From Escherichia phage Av-05: a stretch of 64,000 nt of DNA. The stretch is from sequence record KM190144, one strand, 5' to 3'. Positions within the stretch are counted from its first letter, which is position 1. Each line of letters begins with the position of its first letter. The translations under genes were made by a program, and so were the position numbers. Shown here in pieces: positions 9,763 to 37,624 of the stretch. The notes under the pieces were generated by a model that saw nothing but the letters and a program-made list of their open reading frames with translations, ran no database searches and was not told where the DNA came from.

Positions 9763-11013
9763 ATGACAGCAACAACAGGTGTTGGTGGTTTAATTTATGG
9801 TCGTGCATTGGTTGATCAGAGGACAGGAAAGAAAATAAATTTTGATGAACTGGGCGGCGGGAATATTCCAGAAGACATAACAGATCTTATTGCATCTAAA
9901 GCCCCAATAGAAAGCCCTTCATTTACAGGAAACCCCCAAGCACCAACACCGTTGGATGATGCTATTGGAAAGGAAATAGCTAATGTAGAATATGTGAGGG
10001 GTTTAATTGCAAAATTGGCTGACTCAGCGCCTGAAACATTAGATACTCTCAATGAATTAGCGAAGGCATTAGGTGATGACCCTAACTTTGCGACAACCAT
10101 AACTAACGCTCTTGCTGGTAAACAACCATTGAGTGAAATACTGACATCTTTGTCAGGATTGATTACTGCCGGAAATAAACTAGCTTATTTCAGTGACAAA
10201 AACGTAATGGCTTTGGCAAATCTCTCCGCTGTTGGTCGAGTTATTATAGGGCAAGACTCAAAAACTGGGGTTCTTGATTATCTGGGGATAAAAACCGCCG
10301 CTACAAAAGATGTACAAAACGATATCTATGATGCCACCGATGGGGTAGTATCTTTGCCTGGTGCATTTGGTTTTGGGGCGTTTATCCCTGCCGAGAAAGA
10401 AGTTGTTTTTCAAGAGAAGAATGGGCCAGAGGAATGGGTTTCTTGGTTGAGAAGTGCACAACCTGGTCGTTACCTTGTTCGCCAAGATTTACCTTCAGGT
10501 GGTATACGTATTATTGAAGGGATCACATTTAGAGGTATGGTTGAGGTATTGTCCCTATTTCCAGCGGAGAGTGCGGAACAGGCATCTAAAAATAACAAAT
10601 ATGCTTATTTTTATGGTATAAATGGGGAGTTATACTCTTATCGCTTACTGACTATTTTTGCCAGTGGTGACTGGGTGAATATAAAAGGACAATTCTCTTC
10701 TTTACAGTCTACGGTAGACAATTCATGGGGGAGTCCTGATGTTGGAGGAATAATGTTAGGAGTGTATCTTGGCGCTTCGGACACTGATTCAAACAGAAAA
10801 CTTGTTCGTGGTCAGACTATCCCAGGATCCCGCATAGGGTGTATAACTCTTTACAGCAATGTTTCCGCAACAGGTGCATATCAAAGTACACCAGTTTCTG
10901 TTACACACAGTAATGAAACACAGAGAGGCACGTTTGTAGCCTTATCTGGCTCACCAAGCAACAGCGGTGGTACAGCCACAGGTTACATAGGTCTTTTTAT
11001 GAGGATTGCATAA
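9763..11013 (+). CDS. Tail fibre protein
   Basis: SPSFTGNPQAPTP tail-fibre anchor motif; AAGGAG RBS; N-terminus MTATTGVGGLIYGRALVD. Confidence 0.6.
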   Translation: MTATTGVGGLIYGRALVDQRTGKKINFDELGGGNIPEDITDLIASKAPIESPSFTGNPQAPTPLDDAIGKEIANVEYVRGLIAKLADSAPETLDTLNELAKALGDDPNFATTITNALAGKQPLSEILTSLSGLITAGNKLAYFSDKNVMALANLSAVGRVIIGQDSKTGVLDYLGIKTAATKDVQNDIYDATDGVVSLPGAFGFGAFIPAEKEVVFQEKNGPEEWVSWLRSAQPGRYLVRQDLPSGGIRIIEGITFRGMVEVLSLFPAESAEQASKNNKYAYFYGINGELYSYRLLTIFASGDWVNIKGQFSSLQSTVDNSWGSPDVGGIMLGVYLGASDTDSNRKLVRGQTIPGSRIGCITLYSNVSATGAYQSTPVSVTHSNETQRGTFVALSGSPSNSGGTATGYIGLFMRIA

Positions 11014-11582
11014 TGCTGGATATTAAAGATATTAAGTCCCCGCAGTATCTTCTTAATGGTGACGTTGATTGCCTCGTCCTTTTTGAGGGTTTCTCTGATT
11101 ATCTCCCATACACCGCTTCCAGTAACGACTGTAGCGAAACAGGAAAGGCAGTTTGGGATTCCTTACAATCTGGTAATTTTGGGGAGATTGCCCCGTATGT
11201 AGTAAACCCTCAATTTATCGAGGCATTAAAGCAACAGATGTTATCAGAAATAAAAGAGTGGAGAAAACTGGAAGAAAGCTCTACGGCTATTGTTTCTTAT
11301 AATGGTGCAAGGTATGATGTTGATAATGCAACCCTTGGTCGTATTTATCCAGTATTATTAGCACAAAAAGCATCCCCAGCCAGACAAGCTGTGGTTTGGA
11401 GAGATGTTGATAACAAACCTGTAGAGATGAGTAGCTCTGAATTTGAAAATCTTGTTGTAGCTATGTCTTCCGAGTTGGCAACTAAGAATGATTCAATATA
11501 CATCAAGCAACGAGAAATGAAAGATCAAGTGCTTTCAGCCTCTACGATTGAGGAATTACAAAGGATAAAAATTGGGTGGTAG
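11013..11582 (+). CDS. Putative tail fibre assembly/accessory protein
   Basis: Start overlaps fibre stop (ATGA); position between fibre genes. Confidence 0.3.
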   Translation: MLDIKDIKSPQYLLNGDVDCLVLFEGFSDYLPYTASSNDCSETGKAVWDSLQSGNFGEIAPYVVNPQFIEALKQQMLSEIKEWRKLEESSTAIVSYNGARYDVDNATLGRIYPVLLAQKASPARQAVVWRDVDNKPVEMSSSEFENLVVAMSSELATKNDSIYIKQREMKDQVLSASTIEELQRIKIGW

Positions 11583-13222
11583 CTATGGATTATAAGGATA
11601 AAGTTGTCAATGCTGAAGTCATACTTCCAGATGGGCATAGTATTGGAGGATCAGGACTCCCAAGCCAATCTTTTAAATTATACACAGAAGACACCGCGAC
11701 CATAAAACTTTCAGGTAATGGTGAAAAAGCAACACCACTTAAAGGTGTTGTTGTGGTGGCAGAAGATGAAAATAATGCTCTCCAAGCTGGAGATAATGGG
11801 TTAGCTGTTAAGGTGAGTCCTGCTGCAAATAACCTGCTGGAGTTGAAGCAAGGAGCATTATATGTAACAGCACCAGAGATAAATATTCCAATTTCTCCTA
11901 AAGAAGGAAACGCTTTAACAAATATAACCTCTGAAGGGGAAGAGGGGTTGTATGTTGCGCCTACCAAAGTGCAAGGATGGCTTTATGATTCTGCACCTGG
12001 TGTTGCAGCTTTGCCTGGCGCTTTCGGCTACGGAATGACAGATCCTGGAGCAATTTCACTTATTGCTAACAGTCTTGGCGATGTTGCACGTTCTGCCCAT
12101 AACCTACACCCAGGAAGGTATTATACTTTCACCACACGATCTGAGGAAATGACCGGAATAACAGAAATTATCTGGTTGGATAATGGCTGGGGCAACAAAA
12201 CCAGTCAGACAGCAACAAAGCTGGTTCTGTTTTTTGGAAAAGACGGTCGTATGAAGTATACAATCCGTGGCGACAATCTAAGCGATCCGGCAGTGTGGTA
12301 TGATTTGTTAACTACTAAGCAAACAGATATCTATGATCGTACAGAAGGTGTTGTCGCCATACCTGGCATGTTTGGATTCGGTAGTGATTTCGTCGGTATT
12401 GATACTGTCTATTTTAACAACAAAGCGGAGTTCCTTACTTGGGTGCATAATACTCGTTCTGGTCGTTATCTGGTGAGCCAGATATATGGTAGCGAGCCTA
12501 TCATTAACAGCAATGTTACGTTTAGCGGTATTCTTGAGGTTATCCCAACTGGTAGTGTTGGCGTTGGTTACGAGGAGAATTTACCTAACGTATGGAAAAA
12601 CCTTATTTTTTACGGCGCTAATTACGGCGATATCTGGTACACACGTTTTACCACACAACCGAATAACTTGTCTGGTTGGAGGTGCTTAGATAAGACAACG
12701 GATATAATCAATTTGCAGAACTCGCTTAATAGAAAAGCTCCATTGTACAACCCTAATTTCTCTGGTACACCAACAGTACCTACACCAAGCGATTCAGCAT
12801 CAGGAACCCAGATTGCCAACGTAGATTTTGTTAAAAAACAGGTATCTAATAACACTTACACACTGTCTGCTGGCACGGTTACTGTTTTAGATAGTGGATC
12901 ACAACCTACTATTGAGATAACTGGTCAATCACCATCACAGGTTTTAAATTTGGGAATACCAAAAGCACCTGATGGACAAACAATAAAATCTGTCAATGCT
13001 GTTGTTAAAGAAATAGACAGCGCACAACAGGTTACACTAACTTTTACAATGACAGATGATTCAAGTCAACAGGCGAGCTTTAATATCCCGTTTTCTCCTC
13101 AGCCGACTATGAAGCTGTCAGCAACATCTGGGAATTTCTCTTTCAATTATGGCGATACACCTTCAGCGGAAAAACGCAGCGGGAAGATCTGGGTCTTCTA
13201 TATATTTGAAAACAACAGTTGA
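11576..13222 (+). CDS. Tail fibre protein, N-terminal part (frame-shifted relative to 13149-13553)
   Basis: PNFSGTPTVPTPSDSASGTQIANVDFV fibre motif; stop at 13220 inside overlap with next frame. Confidence 0.55.
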   Translation: MVAMDYKDKVVNAEVILPDGHSIGGSGLPSQSFKLYTEDTATIKLSGNGEKATPLKGVVVVAEDENNALQAGDNGLAVKVSPAANNLLELKQGALYVTAPEINIPISPKEGNALTNITSEGEEGLYVAPTKVQGWLYDSAPGVAALPGAFGYGMTDPGAISLIANSLGDVARSAHNLHPGRYYTFTTRSEEMTGITEIIWLDNGWGNKTSQTATKLVLFFGKDGRMKYTIRGDNLSDPAVWYDLLTTKQTDIYDRTEGVVAIPGMFGFGSDFVGIDTVYFNNKAEFLTWVHNTRSGRYLVSQIYGSEPIINSNVTFSGILEVIPTGSVGVGYEENLPNVWKNLIFYGANYGDIWYTRFTTQPNNLSGWRCLDKTTDIINLQNSLNRKAPLYNPNFSGTPTVPTPSDSASGTQIANVDFVKKQVSNNTYTLSAGTVTVLDSGSQPTIEITGQSPSQVLNLGIPKAPDGQTIKSVNAVVKEIDSAQQVTLTFTMTDDSSQQASFNIPFSPQPTMKLSATSGNFSFNYGDTPSAEKRSGKIWVFYIFENNS

Positions 13223-27513: not shown

Positions 27514-29577
27514 ATGACAGAGGCTATTTTCACAGCCAGAAGAGAAGATGACTCTGTAGCTGTTAGCTTTGACTATGAAACAATATCAAACACAGCTATT
27601 GCTGGAAGAGATTATACACCCAAAGTAGGTACGGCAACAATTCCTAAAGGGGAAAAGTCTGTACAGATACCTGTGGAGATAAAACAACATCCTAAAAACT
27701 CATTACCAAGAGAATTTACCTTGAAAATGAGTAATCCGTCTTTTGGTGCAAGGCTAGACAGGCTGGCTTCCAGATGTGTTATTAGCACCAAGGAGGATAT
27801 GTCTGAGTTGGGGTGGGGAACAAAAGAAGAGAAAATGTTTCTACCTAAATATTGGACAATTGATTCTCAGCCCACAGAAAGTTGCTCTATAATATCTAAT
27901 GGTAATATACTTACAGCTTATATGACTAATAGAACTGTAAGCGGTTTAGCAGGGGTTATTTGGAGCACAAAAGATAAGTATGATCATAAAGGGATCTCTT
28001 TTCAAGATCACACAGATCTTCGAAACGCTAAACTGTGGTTCGATATAGAGTTGGGCGACGGAATGCCTGATTTTAATAATGAGAAATTGACCCCGACATT
28101 AACTCTTAAACTTTTAGATGGGGCGACCCATTATATCCCTCTGTACGCTTATGCTGAAAATATCGGTGAGGATTATAAAAGAGCCACAATCAAACTTGAT
28201 TTTTCAAATTTAAAATCCGGCCCTGATGTGAACGTGCCAGTGGATACCTCTCAAGTGGATCAGTTTTTCTTTTCTATGATATCTGAGAAGTATGCAGAAG
28301 GAGAAGATGTTGTCCCTAAAGAAAATCAGAACCTTATGTTGAAAATAACTCTTAAAGAGCCTGATACAGGCTATACAATGATGAGAGTTAATAATTTGAC
28401 AATTCCTGCACATGATGTGCGTATGTGTACATCCTATGATGATATGTATAACCTGACACCTGAACGAGTGGTGGACAACTGCTTGAAACTTGGGTACAGG
28501 GATATGATAAACCACTATAATGGTATGTCGCATTATTACGAGTTCTCTTGGGAAAGCTCCGCATGGAAACTGAACAAAGATGTCCCTGTCAATAATGCAA
28601 CCCTACAATGGATGAATAACTATTTCGCACTGACACGAGCAAATGGTTATAAGGTTATCAATTCTATTAGTTTTGAGTTGATGAGTACTGTATGTCCGGC
28701 AGAATGGGTGCAGCATGATTGGAATGATGCATTAGCTGAAACAGGATACACACCACCAAGTTGGGTATTATCTCCTAATATTAATGAGGGTATGCAATAT
28801 ATCCAAAGTGTGATAAATAAAATAGCAGCCACATGCGAACAAGCTAACCAGGTTGTTATCATTCAGATAGGGGAGCCTTGGTGGTGGTATAATACTGCTA
28901 CAAATTTACCTTGTGTGTATGATTATACTACAAAAGCGCGTTTTAATGAAGAGACTGGATTGTATGCTCAAGACATGGGGACAATTTATGACTTTAAGAC
29001 CGGAACACCCTATGATGAGTATGTAGATTTTCTAAGACAGTGCTTAGGGGAGCGAGTGGTAAAATTCGGTGCTGATCTTAAAAAATCTTATCCTAATGCA
29101 AAAATAACACTTTTACCGTTTTTACCATCCATTATTGGTAATGGTATTATGGAAAAGATAAATTTCCCTAGTGGTAGTTATACACCTGAGAATTTTGATC
29201 TCTATTGCTCCGAGTGCTATGACTGGTTACTCCAAGGGAAAATGGAAAAATCATTCCAAGCCATCACCATTCCGCGAGATGTCTTAAAATTTAAAGAAGA
29301 TAAGATACATTATCTGGCAGGATTTGTTCCAGACGAAGGGCTAGCACCATTATACGGATTTGACCCTAATTCTAATTATAGAGAATATCTTTGGAAAATG
29401 ATTATAGGGAACATTGTCCTTAATGAGTTTAAGTTTCCAGGTATTTATCAATACATATGGGCGTATCCACAAGTAATGCATGATTCTATAACAGTGCACA
29501 ACTCTCAATCCGCAGTCTTTCATATGGGGCATACAGCATTGAAAGGGTATTTAAAAGATACCCCACCAGAAGTTTAA
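27514..29577 (+). CDS. Calx-beta domain tail protein (putative receptor-binding or glycan-interacting)
   Basis: N-terminal AVSFDYETISNTAIAGRDYTPKVGTATIPKGEKSVQIPVEI fits Calx-beta pattern; 687 aa W/Y-rich. Confidence 0.4.
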   Translation: MTEAIFTARREDDSVAVSFDYETISNTAIAGRDYTPKVGTATIPKGEKSVQIPVEIKQHPKNSLPREFTLKMSNPSFGARLDRLASRCVISTKEDMSELGWGTKEEKMFLPKYWTIDSQPTESCSIISNGNILTAYMTNRTVSGLAGVIWSTKDKYDHKGISFQDHTDLRNAKLWFDIELGDGMPDFNNEKLTPTLTLKLLDGATHYIPLYAYAENIGEDYKRATIKLDFSNLKSGPDVNVPVDTSQVDQFFFSMISEKYAEGEDVVPKENQNLMLKITLKEPDTGYTMMRVNNLTIPAHDVRMCTSYDDMYNLTPERVVDNCLKLGYRDMINHYNGMSHYYEFSWESSAWKLNKDVPVNNATLQWMNNYFALTRANGYKVINSISFELMSTVCPAEWVQHDWNDALAETGYTPPSWVLSPNINEGMQYIQSVINKIAATCEQANQVVIIQIGEPWWWYNTATNLPCVYDYTTKARFNEETGLYAQDMGTIYDFKTGTPYDEYVDFLRQCLGERVVKFGADLKKSYPNAKITLLPFLPSIIGNGIMEKINFPSGSYTPENFDLYCSECYDWLLQGKMEKSFQAITIPRDVLKFKEDKIHYLAGFVPDEGLAPLYGFDPNSNYREYLWKMIIGNIVLNEFKFPGIYQYIWAYPQVMHDSITVHNSQSAVFHMGHTALKGYLKDTPPEV

Positions 29578-29592
29578 GAAGGAGATACTTTT

Positions 29593-30663
29593 ATGGCTAT
29601 ACCAAGTATACCAATCGAGATTTGGGCAGCGGGAGATGTAATTCTCCCTAATACTCACGGGGAGAACAAAATAAGACCTATTGACGACCTTTGGTTAAAA
29701 GGTTGGGATATGGGAGAAAAACCAGCTTGTGAAGAGTTTAACTATGTTCTTCATATGATGACAAGTTGGATAAAATATGTTACAGGGGATCAAATTCCTG
29801 AATTAGATACAAGATTTTTAAGAAGAAGTGAAAATCTGTCTGATTTAGCGGATAAGGAAACATCCAGAGTCAACCTTGATGTGTGGAGCAGATCAGAGGC
29901 CGACAACCGTTACGTGAATGTAACGGGAGATACAATGACAGGAGCTTTGTCATTGCCGAGATTGAATTTTCAACCTTCTGAGACAGATACTGCGTATATC
30001 ACAACTACAAATCCGGCTTCTGACTGGACGTACTGGGATTTTGTTCTTGGAGATAATCCAGGAACAGCAGGGACAAACGGTGTAGATTCTATACGTTTCC
30101 GATTCTCTCCTTCAGGTAACTCTGGGATGTTCACTATGATGGAGCTTAATGCTATTAGCTCCTCAGCGGCTTTGTGTAAAGTAACAGGAAATGTTGTTGC
30201 CACAGGCACTGTACAAGGAACAAATGTTAATGGCACAAATGCAACATTCACCACAACAAGAACATCCTCTTTGACGGCTACAGGGCAAATTCAAGGTCAA
30301 ACTGTTGTAGCAACAAGCTCATTAACAACACCATATGCAAGGGTTAATGGGGAAGCGAATGTAAATTCACTGGTTGTAAATAATAACTCTGCAAGGGTTG
30401 CGGGGAGAAATATCGTAAGATCTGTTAATGGTGTAGGTGCTGACGGGAATGGTAATGTTAACTTACCAACAGGAAGTGTTCAGCAAATAAGACTTGGTAA
30501 TCGTTTCTCTGCGGGGGTTGTTGAGTCTACGTTTTATCCTGGACATGTAATGACTGGCTGGGCATTTGGTAATAAAAAGGAATTGAGAGGTGGTACGTAT
30601 TACACTGCTCCTTTGCAATATCTTGTGAATGGTCAATGGGTAACAGTAACAAATTTAAACTAA
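29593..30663 (+). CDS. Tail fibre protein
   Basis: T/S/G/N/V-rich beta-repeat region (TGNVVATGTVQGTNVNGTNATFTTTRTSSLTATGQIQGQTVVATSSLTT). Confidence 0.5.
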   Translation: MAIPSIPIEIWAAGDVILPNTHGENKIRPIDDLWLKGWDMGEKPACEEFNYVLHMMTSWIKYVTGDQIPELDTRFLRRSENLSDLADKETSRVNLDVWSRSEADNRYVNVTGDTMTGALSLPRLNFQPSETDTAYITTTNPASDWTYWDFVLGDNPGTAGTNGVDSIRFRFSPSGNSGMFTMMELNAISSSAALCKVTGNVVATGTVQGTNVNGTNATFTTTRTSSLTATGQIQGQTVVATSSLTTPYARVNGEANVNSLVVNNNSARVAGRNIVRSVNGVGADGNGNVNLPTGSVQQIRLGNRFSAGVVESTFYPGHVMTGWAFGNKKELRGGTYYTAPLQYLVNGQWVTVTNLN

Positions 30664-30666
30664 GGG

Positions 30667-31218
30667 GTGCATATGTACAAAATCTATGGTAATTTTCAGC
30701 CTTACACACCTGAAAGAACAGAGTATAATTCGGCCTTCATAGACACAGGGGCAGGTTTCCTTAAAGACAGTGATGGTAGAGATTGGTATGAATTATCAAA
30801 AGAACTAGCTGATAACAAAGCGGAAAACCAAAAATTTTTGCTTCTGACTTCGGATGATATAGTCCTCTGTGTCTCACAAGACCCAACCGCTTATTTTCCT
30901 TATGGAATGAAAATAGTAGTTATTGAGAATCTTACTGTAAACTTAGACCCTAAACTCGGGCATATAAAATTTACAGATGGAGAATTTTTTGATTATAACA
31001 AAGAAGCGGTAGAACAAGCTCAATCAATTATAGAAACAGAAATGATGTGGGCTTCTAATCAAATCTCTACCTTGGAGGATATGATCTCTATGGGATTGGG
31101 TACAGAGAGTAGAAAAAAATATCTGGAAAAATTAAAAGAGTATCGCATAAAACTGTTTTCGTTAGACCCTGAAGAAGATATGAATATTTCTTTACCAGAC
31201 AGACCTTCTAAAAAATAA
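30667..31218 (+). CDS. Tail fibre assembly protein (Tfa-like chaperone)
   Basis: C-terminus LKEYRIKLFSLDPEEDMNISLPDRP resembles Tfa C-terminal signature; follows a fibre gene. Confidence 0.45.
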   Translation: MHMYKIYGNFQPYTPERTEYNSAFIDTGAGFLKDSDGRDWYELSKELADNKAENQKFLLLTSDDIVLCVSQDPTAYFPYGMKIVVIENLTVNLDPKLGHIKFTDGEFFDYNKEAVEQAQSIIETEMMWASNQISTLEDMISMGLGTESRKKYLEKLKEYRIKLFSLDPEEDMNISLPDRPSKK

Positions 31219-31229
31219 GGAGACAAGGA

Positions 31230-31544
31230 ATGTCTATTGACCTATTTGCTATCTTAAAAGCCGTATGGGGTGTATTGACGTTTTTCTTAGTTGGTGTTCT
31301 GAAGTTAACATACTCAGACTATAAAAAGACACAGCAACGTCTTGATGAACTTGATAGGGACATCATAAGAATTAAGGCAGAGATGGTCACTAAAGAGAAA
31401 CTTGATGAGATTCTTGATAAAAAACTGAAAGCTGTCCGCGATGATGTTTCAGATTTTAGAAAAGACTTAAAAGAGGATGTGAGCAGTTTGAGAGTTGATC
31501 TTATAGACCAGCTTAAAATTCTTATAGAGAGTCAAATGAAATGA
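31230..31544 (+). CDS. Membrane-anchored coiled-coil protein
   Basis: N-terminal TM (LFAILKAVWGVLTFFLVGVL) then heptad-rich charged segment. Confidence 0.4.
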   Translation: MSIDLFAILKAVWGVLTFFLVGVLKLTYSDYKKTQQRLDELDRDIIRIKAEMVTKEKLDEILDKKLKAVRDDVSDFRKDLKEDVSSLRVDLIDQLKILIESQMK

Positions 31545-32014
31545 TAAGTTCTGCACTGTACTTTATATGCTTTGCAGTGCTACTTCTTGATAATGACAAA
31601 GGGATCCGAGCCATGTCAGTATTTGGCATGGTTCATATCGTGGCAGAGAATATACTGTACTGGTGGTTCTGTTCCCATATCTACGCATTTGACTTGTCAC
31701 TCTACCTAACCTTTTGTTGGTTCTTGGATATATCTCTGATTTTCTTTACTGCATGTGCTTTGACAGGATGGAGAAAAAAGCTAATGCTTACACTATCTCT
31801 TCCTGTTCTGTTTTGCCAAATTTTAGTTATGCAGTTCCCATTTATTTTACCAATCGCATTAGGCTTCACGATAAATTCATCATATCCAACATTTATGGAA
31901 GTTCTTTTATTATGCGCAGCATACAAAAGCGGCACAATAAAAGAATTGCTTGAGACTTCTGTTGTTGTTGGTTTCATAATTATAGCCAGAATTGTTCCTG
32001 GAGTAAATTATTGA
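31541..32014 (+). CDS. Polytopic membrane protein
   Basis: 157 aa with about four hydrophobic helices; ATGA-coupled to previous gene. Confidence 0.4.
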   Translation: MISSALYFICFAVLLLDNDKGIRAMSVFGMVHIVAENILYWWFCSHIYAFDLSLYLTFCWFLDISLIFFTACALTGWRKKLMLTLSLPVLFCQILVMQFPFILPIALGFTINSSYPTFMEVLLLCAAYKSGTIKELLETSVVVGFIIIARIVPGVNY

Positions 32015-32029
32015 GGATTCTAATGTATT

Positions 32030-32293
32030 ATGCTAAAATCAATATTGAAATTTTTAAAAGACCTTGTCAGATCCCCAGTAAATCCAGAGAAGGCCTCTCA
32101 CACAAAATTTTGGAGTAATATCGGCTTGGCTGCAATGACAGCAGTTTTTTTAGATTGGGGTTTCAAAGGCACATTGACGGAGTGGTATATGTGGGTGTAT
32201 GCCCCCACAGTGGCTGCTCCACAGTTAATAAGTAAGTTAATATCTCTACGTTGGGGTGTAGAAGCACAACGTAGGGAAGAATCAGACCAATAA
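32030..32293 (+). CDS. Small single-TM membrane protein
   Basis: 87 aa, central hydrophobic helix NIGLAAMTAVFLDWGF. Confidence 0.4.
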   Translation: MLKSILKFLKDLVRSPVNPEKASHTKFWSNIGLAAMTAVFLDWGFKGTLTEWYMWVYAPTVAAPQLISKLISLRWGVEAQRREESDQ

Positions 32294-32303
32294 GGAGATT
32301 CTT

Positions 32304-34058
32304 GTGGCAGACATGACTAAATTTGAACAGGCGGTCGATCAGGTTGTAGAAGATTCTGAACGCCTTCATAAAGTTGTCAATGGGGCAGCTACTGAAACTG
32401 TAGTTACAGAGGATGGCAGTCTGATACCTACAGTCAGAAAAGCATTTCTTGACAATTTATTCTTTAAAACACCTCCACTACCGTGGGTTGCTGGACAACA
32501 GGCAACGGTATTTAATCAGTTGTATGCTTATACAGGGGAAAGAGGTGTCCAATGGTGGTATGCACCCGGTGCGACAGAGAGTTCACCTGTAACACTACCT
32601 TCTAATCCAGTCAACAATGTTAACTGGAGATTATACAACGATTCAGAATCTATGTCTCAGCTATTTGCGCCTATTGACAGCCCTATCTTTACAGGGAACC
32701 CTCAAGCACCAACACCATCAGCGGATAGTAACAGTACAACTCTGGCAACAACACAATTCGTTACCAGAGCTATTGCTACCGCTTTGGCTGGAATTGCGGG
32801 TGGAAATGGTACATTCGCAGATCTTACTGTAACAGGTTTAGCTAGTCTTAATACGCTTTCTGTTGGCGGTGTATCAACATTTAATGGGCCTGTTAATGCT
32901 GACAACCAAACAGGAAAATTCCAGAATCTTATCTTAACAAAAGATAATTCAAGCCTATCTTTTGCCTACAGTGATGATTCTAACCCGACGTTTATAAAAA
33001 CAAGGCTTGAAGCATACTCAGCACAGACCCATCAGTTACATACAGATATCATCATAAACGGTGTGCCAGTAGCAGACAATACAACAATGTCTTTCACAGG
33101 TCTTGGTAATAATACCTTCGACTATGTTTATATTACAGGCAACTCTAAAAAAGACCCATCTGAAGCTCGTCTCAAAGTTTCTGGGATGACAGAACTTGAA
33201 AACTTAAAGATCACAGGTACTGTAACAGGACTTTCTTTTTCTGTCAATGGGGAAGACATCTCGCCTAATTCTGTAACAACGGCACAAGGGGTTACTGTAG
33301 GTGGTGATTTACAAGTCAATGGTAACACCAATCTCAACAGTACAACATGTGAGAGCTTAGAAGTTACTAACAACCTTGTTGTTAATGGACAAACCAGCCT
33401 CAAGGATTTCTCCTCTACAACTGGTAATGTCACAGGGCTATTAACTTTAGGGGAGGGATTCACTGCGACTGGTGACGGGTCTGTAGGTGGTGATCTAACT
33501 GTCAACGGAACTTCAACCCTTGGTAAGATAATATCTGATGGTGATGTGACTTTAAATAGATCTTCTGGCACAACAACAGTAAACAATTTGGTTGTTAAGG
33601 GGACTGTATCTGGTATTACGTTTGATTTGACAGGACAAAACGTAAACGTAGCATCTCTTTCTGCTCAAAGCAGTGTAACGACAAATCAGTTATTTGTTAA
33701 CGGCCAGGCACAACTTTCTTCCACCAATGTAAGTTTCCTAACTTTACAATCGGAAGAGGTTGACGATCCAACAGCAACATGGACACCAAGCGGCACATCC
33801 AACATTTATAATATCACAGTGAATAAAAATCTGACAATCGGAGCATGGCCTGATCCACAGCAACCTTTCTCCGCTATGATTTATCTGACGCAGGATGCCA
33901 CAGGTGGACACAGTGTAACTCTGGATCCTAATTATGTTGTCCTTAACAGTGAAACTGTTAATACGGCAGCAAATTCAGTTACCATCCTTCAATTAACCTT
34001 TAATGGTGTTGAAGATGGGGTTGTTGACACCATTATTGTCCGTAGACCACAACCATAA
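32304..34058 (+). CDS. Tail fibre protein
   Basis: SPIFTGNPQAPTPSADSNSTTLATTQFV anchor motif; repeated NGxTxL/VxG beta-repeats. Confidence 0.6.
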   Translation: MADMTKFEQAVDQVVEDSERLHKVVNGAATETVVTEDGSLIPTVRKAFLDNLFFKTPPLPWVAGQQATVFNQLYAYTGERGVQWWYAPGATESSPVTLPSNPVNNVNWRLYNDSESMSQLFAPIDSPIFTGNPQAPTPSADSNSTTLATTQFVTRAIATALAGIAGGNGTFADLTVTGLASLNTLSVGGVSTFNGPVNADNQTGKFQNLILTKDNSSLSFAYSDDSNPTFIKTRLEAYSAQTHQLHTDIIINGVPVADNTTMSFTGLGNNTFDYVYITGNSKKDPSEARLKVSGMTELENLKITGTVTGLSFSVNGEDISPNSVTTAQGVTVGGDLQVNGNTNLNSTTCESLEVTNNLVVNGQTSLKDFSSTTGNVTGLLTLGEGFTATGDGSVGGDLTVNGTSTLGKIISDGDVTLNRSSGTTTVNNLVVKGTVSGITFDLTGQNVNVASLSAQSSVTTNQLFVNGQAQLSSTNVSFLTLQSEEVDDPTATWTPSGTSNIYNITVNKNLTIGAWPDPQQPFSAMIYLTQDATGGHSVTLDPNYVVLNSETVNTAANSVTILQLTFNGVEDGVVDTIIVRRPQP

Positions 34059-34064
34059 TATAAA

Positions 34065-34090
34065 AGGCCACAGCAGTGGCCTTTGTTTTA
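34065..34090 (+). terminator. Rho-independent terminator
   Basis: AGGCCAC-AGCA-GTGGCCT hairpin then TTGTTTTA. Confidence 0.6.
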
Positions 34091-34099
34091 GGAGGATTA

Positions 34100-36043
34100 A
34101 TGTATCCAATCCCTTGTTTTTATATCATAATTTCCAATAACCCTCTAGCCAACTCCATTTCCTTAACCTCCCTCGGTACGTGTCTTAAAGGAGGCAAAGC
34201 ACAATTAATATGGTCTGTTGTGCCAGAAGGTGCAGACTTGCATGATATAACATTTACACCAGACAAACCGACAATTGTATCTGTTGATCCTACGGGGCTA
34301 GTATCTTTTCTTGAAGATGGTGATTTTATCATCACAATGTCTGCAAAGACTGGCAAAGGAGATGAAGAAAAGACCTTAACAGCACAAATCAATGGGCATG
34401 TTGACACATTACGCATTGATGTTGATCCTATAGGCAGCAGAAGCATTAGTGATAGATTCTGGTTTGTCTACAAAGGCGACCCGTCTTTTGACCCAGGCAA
34501 TCCGAATCCGAATATGATTGGCTTTAACATCTCCCCAGCAGAAGTTATGGAGGAGGATGACTTTTATGTCACCGCAGTTTCTGAAACACCTGATATATTA
34601 AGTCTGGCTCCTAGTGGTATCATTACATGTGTTAGTAAAGGTGTTGGGCATTGTGGCATGAAAGGAACCTATAAAGATGTGACAGTAACGACGCTTACCG
34701 ATGTATATGTGGATATAGCACCAGCACTTATAAATCCGACTGCTGTAGCCAACAGTTATGGTGACGTTAAGATAGCGTGGGATGTTCAATTTCCCTCCTC
34801 GGATGATATTTATACCGTAGAGGTTTATGACCCTAAAATGCCAGATGCTGTGTGGAGTAAGAAAACCAAAGACACATTCGTATTCTTTGATGTTACAGAA
34901 TCAGTGCCTATCTTTGGATTCGCCCCTACATATCTTGATGTGGTCATCAAAGGATCAAATCCAGAAACACAACCTATAAGTCCTGATAGGAATATAACTG
35001 TTGACGACTCTTTTGTTAAAGAGGTGCTTGTTTTTGCTGGCGGTGATAACGCAGCAGCGCATTTTAACTCTTTTTCTGGTAGGGATAAAACAACCCAAAG
35101 TGCGACCACAGCACGTAATGAGTATGCTCTCAGCAAAGGGTTTTACCCAGCAGAAGTATTACCAATCAATGCCGCATTCATTACATCTTGTGCAGAAGCA
35201 CAGGCAAACTCCTCTACAGGGTTAGCCACAAATTACTGGTATGACGTTAGTTCCTCCACAGCAGGTCCGTGTCTAACACAGTTCCTTGCGAAGGTTAAAC
35301 CTTATAAGGATAAAATTAAGGCTGTTTTCTGGTCGTTAGGGGAACAAGATGCCATGGTAGCAGCAGCAAAACAAGAGGGAAAACATAGCGATGATGCTCG
35401 TTTTCAGACTGCTATGACCGCCATCTTTGAAAATATCCGATCTGTTATCACAAATCCTGAAGCCAAGATTGTATTGCAGACACTTGGCAGATGCTTTGAT
35501 GATGATGTGGAAGTAGGTGGTGTTGAGTGGTATCGTTATAGAAATATTCAACAACAGTTAGTGGTAGATTCCAAGGGTGGAGTTATAATTGGCTCTTGGG
35601 TTGATGGCGCTGAACACTACGGCAATTATGTTGTTTCAGGGGCAGGGGGTGGTTTAAGAATACACTACCGACCAACAATTTATAAGAATGCCGCAATATC
35701 CTTGGCTAACATGGAGGACTTGTCGAGCACACCTCCTGCTTGGGTGGATATGAAAGTTCCCATGGGAGGAAAGGCAGTAAGGCAAGCAAACCAAGATATT
35801 CTTTTATCATGGGATACCAGAGACTACAGCAAGTTCTCTCTTTTTAACTTTGATGTCCTGACAGGGGCTGTTATATCCCAACAAACATTGACCACCAATA
35901 GTTACACATTTACCTACGCAGATCAAGTAAAACAGTACGGGTATGCTGCGGGTACAGTTTTGTTTGGTGTTGCATATGTTCAAACAACCAGTAAAGGTGA
36001 TATTACATCTCCGTTGGCGAAATTCAATATTAATGTAGCGTGA
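34100..36043 (+). CDS. Tail fibre/spike protein with Ig-like and SGNH/SASA-like esterase domains (putative)
   Basis: GGAGG RBS 4 nt before ATG 34100 (track GTG 34076 is inside terminator hairpin); VLVFAGGDNA and FWSLGEQDA resemble SASA/SGNH esterase motifs. Confidence 0.4.
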   Translation: MYPIPCFYIIISNNPLANSISLTSLGTCLKGGKAQLIWSVVPEGADLHDITFTPDKPTIVSVDPTGLVSFLEDGDFIITMSAKTGKGDEEKTLTAQINGHVDTLRIDVDPIGSRSISDRFWFVYKGDPSFDPGNPNPNMIGFNISPAEVMEEDDFYVTAVSETPDILSLAPSGIITCVSKGVGHCGMKGTYKDVTVTTLTDVYVDIAPALINPTAVANSYGDVKIAWDVQFPSSDDIYTVEVYDPKMPDAVWSKKTKDTFVFFDVTESVPIFGFAPTYLDVVIKGSNPETQPISPDRNITVDDSFVKEVLVFAGGDNAAAHFNSFSGRDKTTQSATTARNEYALSKGFYPAEVLPINAAFITSCAEAQANSSTGLATNYWYDVSSSTAGPCLTQFLAKVKPYKDKIKAVFWSLGEQDAMVAAAKQEGKHSDDARFQTAMTAIFENIRSVITNPEAKIVLQTLGRCFDDDVEVGGVEWYRYRNIQQQLVVDSKGGVIIGSWVDGAEHYGNYVVSGAGGGLRIHYRPTIYKNAAISLANMEDLSSTPPAWVDMKVPMGGKAVRQANQDILLSWDTRDYSKFSLFNFDVLTGAVISQQTLTTNSYTFTYADQVKQYGYAAGTVLFGVAYVQTTSKGDITSPLAKFNINVA

Positions 36044-36052
36044 TAGCAAAAT

Positions 36053-36077
36053 AAAAGGGAGCTAAAAGCTCCCTTTT
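36053..36077. terminator. Bidirectional Rho-independent terminator between convergent blocks
   Basis: GGGAGC-TAAAA-GCTCCC hairpin flanked by AAAA and TTTT. Confidence 0.6.
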
Positions 36078-36096
36078 ATATTAACAAATGCTACTT

Positions 36097-37269
36097 TTAG
36101 AAAGGAATATCTTCATCGTAGTCAAACTCAGGTGCTGGCGACTCCATATTCGGAATATCGCTGTTAGCACTGTTCAAAGGTTCCTTAGCATCCTGTTTGT
36201 TCTCTTGTTGTGTCTTCCCATCACCTTTAGATAAGAACTCGTAAAAAGGCTCTGACAGCGTTAGGTAAACATCTTTAGCGGCATTAAGAATGCCATCTTC
36301 TGTTAGTTTATCGATTTGATGATACAAAGCACAAGCTACTAAGATAGCATTACCCGCACTAGCACCCACCGCATTAGATTCCACATCTTTTCCTGTTCTC
36401 TCTGCCACAAAAGCCTTCATAGCTACTGTAGCGTTGTGAACCATCTTCGCGGCAGAGAGACGATCCTCGATCTTAAAACCAGCTTTAATGAGTTCCTTCA
36501 CACCGTTGATGCCGTGCCCACAAGCAACACCTAAAGCATCATAGCCGCCAGATGACTTCTTAGTCTGCCCAGCAGGACCGTAGGCTTTAAATCCACTTAA
36601 GACCGTACCATCACTTAGGTTAACAATCGCAGTGACACGACCACCTACTGCAACTTGCGACAATTGCTCATCTGTGAGGACAAGGTTTCCTTGACCATTC
36701 TTCTCATCATTAACTGTCACCACATTGCCAACGATTGCAGCAATCTCACCATAAATTTTAGTGCCTTTAACTTGGGCATTTGCAGGTGATTGGGTCGAAG
36801 ATTGCTGGCGAGGAGCACTTTGACCAACTTTGCTTTCATCAAGAATGCTGAAGGTCTTTCCGTTTAAAGTGCCGTTTGTATACGTTTTATCCACACTCTT
36901 AGTAATTTTGAGAGGGAAAGAAACAACCATCCCCGCCACAATATCTTTGTATCCAGAATCAAATTTCACCTGAATTTTGTCTGCATGGCTTGGGTGAAGT
37001 TTTTTCTCACCCATAGAAATCCACTCACCTTGGCTCTGTGGGTCAATAACGTTGTTATTATCGTCAACCTCTTGCATCAGGAAACTGATTGAGTGCGTGG
37101 CCTCAATAACTTTAGCTGGTTGCCCATTGCGAGCAGGGATATGGGTACGCCGGATACCATCTGCGTCAGCGTTTTTCACTGGACGAATATTAACATACTT
37201 GATAAAACCTTTCGCAAAATAATCAACTTTTCCGTTGATTGGGTTTTTAAATTCATTGATTACGCTCAT
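36097..37269 (-). CDS. Putative ssDNA-binding protein with SSB-like acidic C-terminal tail
   Basis: Ends PEFDYDEDIPF (bacterial SSB tails end DDDIPF); AAGGAG RBS before ATG 37269. Confidence 0.4.
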   Translation of the reverse strand: MSVINEFKNPINGKVDYFAKGFIKYVNIRPVKNADADGIRRTHIPARNGQPAKVIEATHSISFLMQEVDDNNNVIDPQSQGEWISMGEKKLHPSHADKIQVKFDSGYKDIVAGMVVSFPLKITKSVDKTYTNGTLNGKTFSILDESKVGQSAPRQQSSTQSPANAQVKGTKIYGEIAAIVGNVVTVNDEKNGQGNLVLTDEQLSQVAVGGRVTAIVNLSDGTVLSGFKAYGPAGQTKKSSGGYDALGVACGHGINGVKELIKAGFKIEDRLSAAKMVHNATVAMKAFVAERTGKDVESNAVGASAGNAILVACALYHQIDKLTEDGILNAAKDVYLTLSEPFYEFLSKGDGKTQQENKQDAKEPLNSANSDIPNMESPAPEFDYDEDIPF

Positions 37270-37282
37270 TCTCTCTCCTTTA

Positions 37283-37624
37283 TTACTTAACGCCTTCAGC
37301 AGTTTCGTTTCCAACGCTCAACATCTTATCTACCACTAAATCTTCAACTTGATTTAGCAGGTTCAATGCAAAAGTGGAAGCAGTATTTAATTTCAACAAA
37401 TTGTTGCGGTGTCCTCGGATCCATGAAATTGCATCCTCTACCGTTTTATAGTTACCACTTTGGATGAGCTTTAGCATCTCTTCTCGAATTTCTTTCGACC
37501 CGATTACTGTTCCCATCTGGTGGCTGGCGCTGGACAAGTATACAATTGTTCCAAACTGCCCTTCATCAAGATCAAGAAAACGGATATCTTCTTTGCTTTC
37601 AGGTGTTTGTTTTTCTTCAGACAT
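37283..37624 (-). CDS. Hypothetical protein
   Basis: ORF in track, 113 aa. Confidence 0.4.
   Translation of the reverse strand: MSEEKQTPESKEDIRFLDLDEGQFGTIVYLSSASHQMGTVIGSKEIREEMLKLIQSGNYKTVEDAISWIRGHRNNLLKLNTASTFALNLLNQVEDLVVDKMLSVGNETAEGVK

Follow-up and report, generated by a model that had tools for sequence, protein, structure and literature searches.

An SGNH domain in a phage tail protein is usually labelled a receptor-destroying esterase in annotations. Does this label hold for the 647-residue protein encoded at positions 34100–36043 of a 64,000-nucleotide stretch of Escherichia phage Av-05 (sequence record KM190144; the whole stretch is referred to below as the window)? A first-pass annotation of the sequence described this product as a fibre-like protein with SGNH/SASA-type esterase motifs, and suggested that it belongs to the tail-associated esterases that deacetylate O-antigen or capsule. 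Here it is shown that the central domain of the protein has genuine homology to carbohydrate esterases of the SASA/SGNH type and descends from sialate/carbohydrate O-acetylesterases. Its catalytic machinery, however, appears to have been dismantled, and we consider it rather probable that the domain is a pseudo-esterase, kept as a glycan-binding and/or scaffold module in host recognition.

Homology of the central domain to SASA/SGNH esterases

The two motifs that had been likened to the GQSN and WxQGE blocks of carbohydrate O-acetylesterases, VLVFAGGDNA (residues 309–318) and FWSLGEQDA (residues 410–418), are both present in the protein. The likeness reflects true SASA/SGNH homology and block III is kept, but the supposed GQSN is GGDN and lacks the serine. 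When scanned with the Pfam SASA profile (PF03629), the 647-residue protein fell short of the gathering cut-off of 24.8 bits: its match, limited to profile positions 107–197, scored 17.4 bits (E = 0.0035). A word-indexed protein search yielded close relatives only, and an exhaustive HMMER search was needed; run over 1.84 billion representatives, it gave 70 relatives, most of them with the canonical SASA blocks (A/G)GQSNAxGH, WAQGE(N/Q)DA and xIHY. Six of the ten relatives that were scanned pass the SASA gathering score, with 26–51 bits (P0090, P0086, P0093, P0083, P0043 and P0047). A profile search for SASA/SGNH domains, which had been proposed as a check, thus misses the protein itself and succeeds with these relatives.

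Aligned through the family profile, blocks I and III fall on the SASA structure 2apj, and block V on DGVHF, which is the catalytic motif of Ape1 (4k3u), a peptidoglycan O-acetylesterase. The full-length AlphaFold2 model has a predicted local distance difference test (pLDDT) score of 90.1; as the full-length Foldseek search was dominated by Ig and FN3 chains, a domain-only SGNH model (pLDDT 91.6) was made. The domain has the fold of the SGNH superfamily, a three-layer α/β/α arrangement in which a parallel sheet lies at the centre. Blocks I, II, III and V are carried on the loops that follow the strands, all of them at their canonical strand–loop positions. The search of a viral structure library returned SGNH-type phage tail proteins. 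Could the motifs nevertheless be a chance match in an unrelated, β-rich fibre protein? The low and partial SASA score of the protein itself would fit such a view, but it is refuted by the transitive HMMER link to proteins that pass SASA, by the alignments to structural blocks and by the placement of all blocks in the model, and we give it practically no weight.

Residues in the catalytic columns

Catalysis by SGNH enzymes requires a nucleophilic serine in block I, an oxyanion hole and a histidine base in block V, and in CE6/CE20/SASA-type enzymes the oxyanion hole is made by the glutamine of GQSN together with the block II glycine (PMC12313940). In the window protein the nucleophile column is occupied by Asp316, and the two oxyanion columns by Gly315 and Ile361, while block III is retained. 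The catalytic-histidine column holds His522, without an aspartate at position −3 (G-L-R-I-H), and this histidine is replaced by glutamine in phage 24-2-1 (92% identical), P0001 (94%) and P0005 (83%). The SGNH domain is under purifying selection, with a ratio of nonsynonymous to synonymous substitution rates (dN/dS) of 0.18 against phage 24-2-1. Since His522 swaps with glutamine while the fold stays conserved, it appears not to be an essential base. A serine-esterase mechanism is unlikely because the serine, the glutamine and the block II glycine are all replaced and His522 is a glutamine in relatives, and the proposed role as a tail esterase deacetylating O-antigen or capsule is unlikely with it.

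Aspartate stands in the serine column in all 37 close homologues, within GGDN in five of five and within GQDN in 32 of 32 phi92-like (Justusliebigvirus) proteins. A sequencing error at Asp316 was considered and rejected, given this invariance and a GAT codon that is two changes from AGT/AGC or any TCN serine codon. In the model Asp316 starts helix α1 (residues 316–322), and a role as helix N-cap could be a structural reason for its conservation.

Across the family, serine is found at the nucleophile column in 56 of 76 domain instances, and serine and histidine occur together in 42 of 60; judged from their motifs, many of the relatives with canonical GQSN and IHY are probably real esterases. 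Aspartate at this column is restricted to the clade of the window protein, bar one N4-like half-domain (P0041, residues 410–571). Serine or histidine has been lost repeatedly in the phage family, with Ala, Met, Val, Leu, Glu or Thr as replacements, or Gln in N4 itself, where the gp65 motifs are GINQ (Ser to Gln) and WIYY (His to Tyr). On global re-alignment the serine of the N4-like block I, GINS, is in register, and it is lost only in N4 and some others. As the instances without serine or histidine, N4 gp65 included, vary in the replacement residue, the loss of catalysis appears to be recurrent and tolerated in these tail proteins.

Compared with SASA/CE6-type enzymes (PF03629; 1zmb, 2apj, NanS 3pt5 and CE20 9h4u), the window protein shares block III, WxxGExD, and the position of the block V histidine, and it differs in having Asp for Ser, Gly for Gln, Ile for Gly and no Asp at −3. 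We would therefore not file it as a SASA esterase on its sequence: the gathering score is not reached, the serine and both oxyanion residues are absent, and the histidine is not conserved. It is a member of PHROG 32204, a part-homologue of N4 gp65 and, at the level of the fold, a member of the SGNH superfamily. The phage enzymes G7C gp63.1 (4qnl) and those of Moo19 and B2 retain the Ser–His apparatus and are trimeric fibres or spikes. They have been reported as esterases or deacetylases of O-antigen (PMC8594841, and the title of the report on the Moo19 and B2 tailspikes). The window protein differs from them in lacking the serine and in being modelled as a monomeric chain of domains, and no closer sequence relationship to them was found.

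Possible roles of the domain

What could the domain do in the virion? Because the catalytic residues are lost while the fold stays under purifying selection, a pseudo-esterase is the most likely answer, which we favour with some reserve; the domain most likely no longer removes acetyl groups. The retained module would bind carbohydrate and/or act as a spacer, helping the tail to engage the host surface polysaccharide, and it would work with the GMSHY-bearing TIM-barrel protein encoded at 27514–29577, a kind of module to which it is covalently fused in many relatives. The motifs that form the cleft (FAGxDN..AHF, NYWYD, GPCLT and GExDA) are conserved between the window-type and phi92-like clades, which are 41% identical. 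Two precedents make glycan binding plausible by analogy. In CE2 esterases (CtCE2 2wao, 2w9x) the active site doubles as a non-catalytic glycan (cellulose)-binding site, although these enzymes keep the Ser–His dyad and remain esterases, and the comparison implies no membership of that family. In phage phiAxp-3, residues 795–1195 of the gp65 homologue bind lipopolysaccharide (LPS) and block adsorption (PMC5862860); we mapped this fragment to part of SGNH-like domain 2 and two FN3 domains.

Several points weigh against a pseudo-esterase that binds glycans. The phiAxp-3 fragment begins inside the SGNH-like domain, so the LPS result is a crude one, and both the ligand and the binding site in the window protein are putative. 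The invariance of Asp316 across two clades as distant as these makes a functional, even a catalytic, role possible. Moreover, the phi92-like clade keeps the oxyanion glutamine, the block II glycine, block III and the histidine, the glutamine, glycine and histidine being lost in the window protein or its closest relatives; its only change is from serine to aspartate, and its site is not obviously decayed.

One alternative is an active tail-associated O-acetylesterase with a non-canonical site, in which Asp316 would act as nucleophile or general base with His522 and which would deacetylate O-antigen, capsule, enterobacterial common antigen (ECA) or the N4 glycan receptor (NGR). We regard such an enzyme as improbable. 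The fold, the SASA-like blocks III and V, the presence of Asp316 in every one of the 37 homologues, the residues kept in the phi92-like proteins and the many relatives with canonical GQSN and IHY speak for it, but we know of no SGNH hydrolase with an aspartate nucleophile. Unusual triads are tolerated by SASA-type enzymes, for example the water-mediated triad of CE20 (PMC12313940). However, the serine that defines the SGNH mechanism described there is absent, the oxyanion glutamine and glycine are also gone in the window protein (G315, I361), and His522 has become glutamine in relatives that are 83–94% identical, even as purifying selection acts on the domain. Slightly more doubtful still is a further proposal, in which Asp316 would be the centre of a new SGNH-fold chemistry or mode of recognition, either an Asp/His hydrolase or transferase acting on the N-acetylmannosamine-containing NGR or on ECA, or an esterase-derived lectin that reads the acetylation of the host glycan and leaves it in place; such a module would be found in phi92-like and rV5-like myoviruses and be degenerate in N4. 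A purely architectural role deserves more attention than either of these, though we think it unlikely. Here the SGNH and FN3 domains would space or dock baseplate or fibre parts through protein contacts, with no carbohydrate ligand. The homologous region of N4 gp65 lies in a sheath of gp65–gp64 heterodimers, the C-terminal domains bind the plug protein gp53 (PMC12633501), the N4 copy has neither the serine (Gln) nor the histidine (Tyr), and the catalytic columns drift inside the window clade, all of which agrees with this view. It is harder to reconcile with the high conservation of the cleft motifs between clades, with the fusion of relatives to glycan-active domains (NCTSP TIM barrel, GH18, GH5) and with the binding of LPS by the phiAxp-3 fragment.

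A whole clade of coliphage tail proteins, of the window type and the phi92 type, keeps an esterase fold with the nucleophile replaced. If the domain is a pseudo-esterase, as we favour, automatic labels such as "esterase" or "deacetylase" would be wrong for it, as would host-range predictions derived from them. With probably active members (GQSN...IHY) beside inactive ones, the family would offer a natural series on how phage enzymes turn into binding modules. In the literature searched, which did not include the phi92 genome paper and the N4 Structure 2025 paper, the gp65/phi92-like domain is nowhere called SGNH-like or a pseudo-esterase.

The N4 gp65 counterpart, the probable partner gene and the genomic setting

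The closest solved structure is that of N4 gp65, the non-contractile tail sheath and receptor-binding protein (PDB 9lc0, 9yf4, 9yf5 and 9yft). It is matched with E = 3.6e-20 in a single-sequence phmmer search and E = 3.7e-154 with the family profile, and by Foldseek with E = 2.4e-32 and a TM-score of 0.56 over 507 columns. Residues ~205–647 of the window protein, comprising FN3, SGNH-like and FN3 domains, are the counterpart of residues ~608–1076 of N4 gp65, and the terminal FN3 domain also matches further FN3-like repeats of gp65. The SGNH copy of gp65 is catalytically degenerate too, as described above. Domain folds of gp65 are not covered in the preprint on the N4 structure. The two proteins differ in size (1382 residues in gp65, 647 in the window protein) and in their N-terminal parts: in a Pfam scan, NCTSP_N and TIM-barrel_NCTSP (PF23844 and PF23845) were not found in the window protein, which has an Ig-like N-terminus instead, and in the window these domains are encoded by the separate gene at 27514–29577. 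Whereas N4 gp65 is a tail sheath, the window protein cannot be one, because its phage, a myovirus, encodes a genuine contractile sheath (PHROG 205). It is not to be filed as a non-contractile sheath protein, as it is without the NCTSP domains and its phage is a myovirus.

The pentapeptide GMSHY in the product of 27514–29577 has been reported as a conserved signature of N4-glycan-receptor-binding domains, found in N4 gp65 and in phi92 gp142-type fibres (bioRxiv 10.64898/2026.04.02.716166), and its occurrence here predicts that the window phage uses the NGR. NCTSP_N, TIM-barrel_NCTSP and a SASA-like domain are combined on one chain in 16 of 33 relatives. By the logic of gene fusion, with the domains on one polypeptide in relatives, the products of 27514–29577 and 34100–36043 probably act together. 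The ancestral arrangement in active relatives looks like a glycan-processing pair, with the esterase beside the TIM barrel. Two genes of a broad-host-range myovirus are thereby linked to two subunits of the N4 receptor-binding sheath, and their products form a concrete pair for studying NGR and host-surface recognition. The "glycan deacetylase tail fibre" of the BASEL annotation was considered as an equivalent of the 647-residue protein and rejected; it is of the N4 gp64 / phi92 gp142 type and matches the open reading frame (ORF) at 27514–29577.

Other relatives (P0038–P0077) fuse the SASA-like domain to GH18, to GH5 cellulase or to DUF7483. The SASA-like fusions make up a modular esterase-plus-glycosidase toolkit in tail proteins, in which about a quarter of the domain instances are without the serine or the histidine. 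In N4, the NCTSP TIM barrel and the first SGNH-like domain seem to be split between the sheath subunits gp65 and gp64. Residues 374–416 and 434–604 of gp65 hold TIM positions 4–46 and SGNH blocks I–III, with the serine in GESQ; residues 16–77 and 109–407 of gp64 hold the SGNH portion with block V (QIHF) and TIM positions 60–347. P0040 and the window phage have an unbroken TIM barrel. The split in N4 suggests that gp65 and gp64, joined in the heterodimer, together make up complete domains.

Table 1. Positions of the 647-residue tail protein gene, its domains and catalytic blocks, the flanking elements and the probable partner gene within the window
Feature	Position	Strand	Evidence
687-residue tail protein: Calx-beta, NCTSP_N, complete TIM-barrel_NCTSP; GMSHY at residue 337 (nt 28522)	27514..29577	+	domain scan
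GC-rich hairpin AAAGGCCAC-AGCA-GTGGCCTTT, between the upstream fibre gene (32304–34058) and the 647-residue protein gene	34063..34084	.	sequence
Shine–Dalgarno sequence AGGAGG, 4 nt before the ATG	34090..34095	+	sequence
Coding sequence, 647 codons and stop codon, tail-appendage protein	34100..36043	+	PHROG 32204, ORF list
N-terminal segment, residues 1–16 (MYPIP...)	34100..34147	+	M1, Y2 and P5 invariant; first 11 residues low pLDDT
Two Ig-like β-sandwich domains, residues 17–108 and 109–204	34148..34711	+	Pfam Big_2, Big-like; model strands
FN3-like domain, residues 205–297, ahead of the SGNH domain as in N4 gp65 608–720	34712..34990	+	homology, model
SGNH/SASA-fold domain, residues 298–548, read as a probable pseudo-esterase	34991..35743	+	
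Block I FAGGDN, residues 312–317; Gly315 for the oxyanion Gln, Asp316 (GAT, 35045–35047) for the nucleophile Ser	35033..35050	+	alignments; β1/α1 junction of model
Ile361 in the block II oxyanion Gly column; relatives (W/V)GS	35180..35182	+	alignments
Block III WSLGEQD, residues 411–417, retained; family consensus WAQGE(N/Q)D; aligns to WYQGESD of 2apj	35330..35350	+	
Block V RIHY, residues 520–523; His522 in the catalytic-His column	35657..35668	+	aligned to DGVHF of Ape1 4k3u
C-terminal FN3-like domain, residues 549–647, with homology to the FN3-like repeats of N4 gp65 (980–1370)	35744..36040	+	homology, model
13-bp hairpin with A- and T-runs at its flanks, between the 647-residue protein gene and the convergent minus-strand gene 36097–37314	36051..36079	.	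sequence, terminator scan

The protein is best explained as beads on a string: an attachment segment, two Ig-like domains, an FN3 domain, the SGNH/SASA domain and a final FN3 domain (Table 1). The short N-terminal segment, which is conserved in the phi92-like homologues as well, presumably anchors the protein to the virion. The Ig-like N-terminal segments of the first-pass annotation are borne out by the β-sandwich domains of the model and by matches to Pfam Big_2 at residues 27–92 (22.7 bits, just under the gathering cut-off of 22.8) and to Big-like at residues 157–185; this Ig region alone (residues 17–204) is common to tail proteins of PVP-SE1-like and phAPEC8-like phages. Of all domains, the FN3-like one at residues 205–297 has the highest dN/dS against phage 24-2-1, 0.75 as compared with 0.08–0.18 for the others, and it may be a contact surface or be under relaxed constraint. 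The monomer model contains only globular Ig, FN3 and SGNH domains with no shaft, and the best structural match, N4 gp65, is monomeric. The description as "fibre-like" is therefore loose with respect to structure, there being no trimeric fibre shaft in the model.

The window carries a myovirus tail module, with a contractile sheath, a tape measure, baseplate hub and wedge proteins and several fibre genes, and the gene in question is the last of the fibre cluster, convergent with the replication genes. The PHROG 32204 "tail protein" profile matches residues 1–647 from end to end (E = 0, 1315 bits). There is 41% identity over the full 647 residues with a 939-residue phi92-like "lateral tail fiber / tail protein", and synteny with the last lateral tail fibre gene of phi92-like phages (EmilieFrey bas61_0035; phi92 gp152/153), which likewise stands at the end of the fibre cluster beside convergent replication genes; the phi92-like proteins have ~290 extra C-terminal residues that are absent from the window protein. 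The EmilieFrey homologue is annotated in BASEL as having "intimin and glycosidase domains". The PHROG match and the synteny support the protein being a tail-appendage protein of the virion, and it is best explained as a peripheral component of the tail, a baseplate appendage, in an E. coli myovirus that resembles the Vequintavirinae. An NCBIfam scan of the protein gave no match, and the rV5 paper has nothing on it.

The nearest records are those of Escherichia phages 18-1-2, 19-1-2, 24-2-1 and vB_EcoM_TH18, in which the gene has 92% nucleotide identity. Close relatives in the phage collection are limited to OK136180, OK181858, OK181861 and ON075799, 92% identical and placed under Vequintavirinae/Avunavirus; these four records are 77–80 kb long, except for that of TH18 with 134 kb, and the genes in question are all annotated as "hypothetical protein". 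The contractile sheath protein of the window is ~59% identical to the sheaths of the rV5-like phages navn, Murica and ECP2309. At least four other genes of tail-fibre type lie at 9763–13222 and 29593–34058 (PHROGs 2636, 4465 and 4549), and the 584-residue protein encoded directly upstream of the gene gives a weak bactofilin/β-solenoid-like match. The adsorption apparatus of the window phage is a multi-fibre one of the rV5/phi92 type.

The longest version of the ORF runs on the plus strand from a GTG at 34076 to 36043, and a shorter one starts from the ATG at 34100. The ATG had been preferred as the true start for its ribosome-binding site, and besides the Shine–Dalgarno sequence it is supported by the N-terminus MYPIP of every homologue and by the GenBank coding sequence of phage 24-2-1, which starts at the equivalent ATG. 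The GTG is a spurious start: the 3′ arm of the upstream hairpin opens with this triplet. That hairpin had been called a terminator, but in the terminator scan it scored as terminator-like on the minus strand only, its plus-strand T-run being short, so the term is a soft label for it. Downstream, the convergent minus-strand gene at 36097–37314 encodes 405 residues, and the hairpin between the two genes has the look of a terminator for both directions, placed where the structural module meets the replication module.

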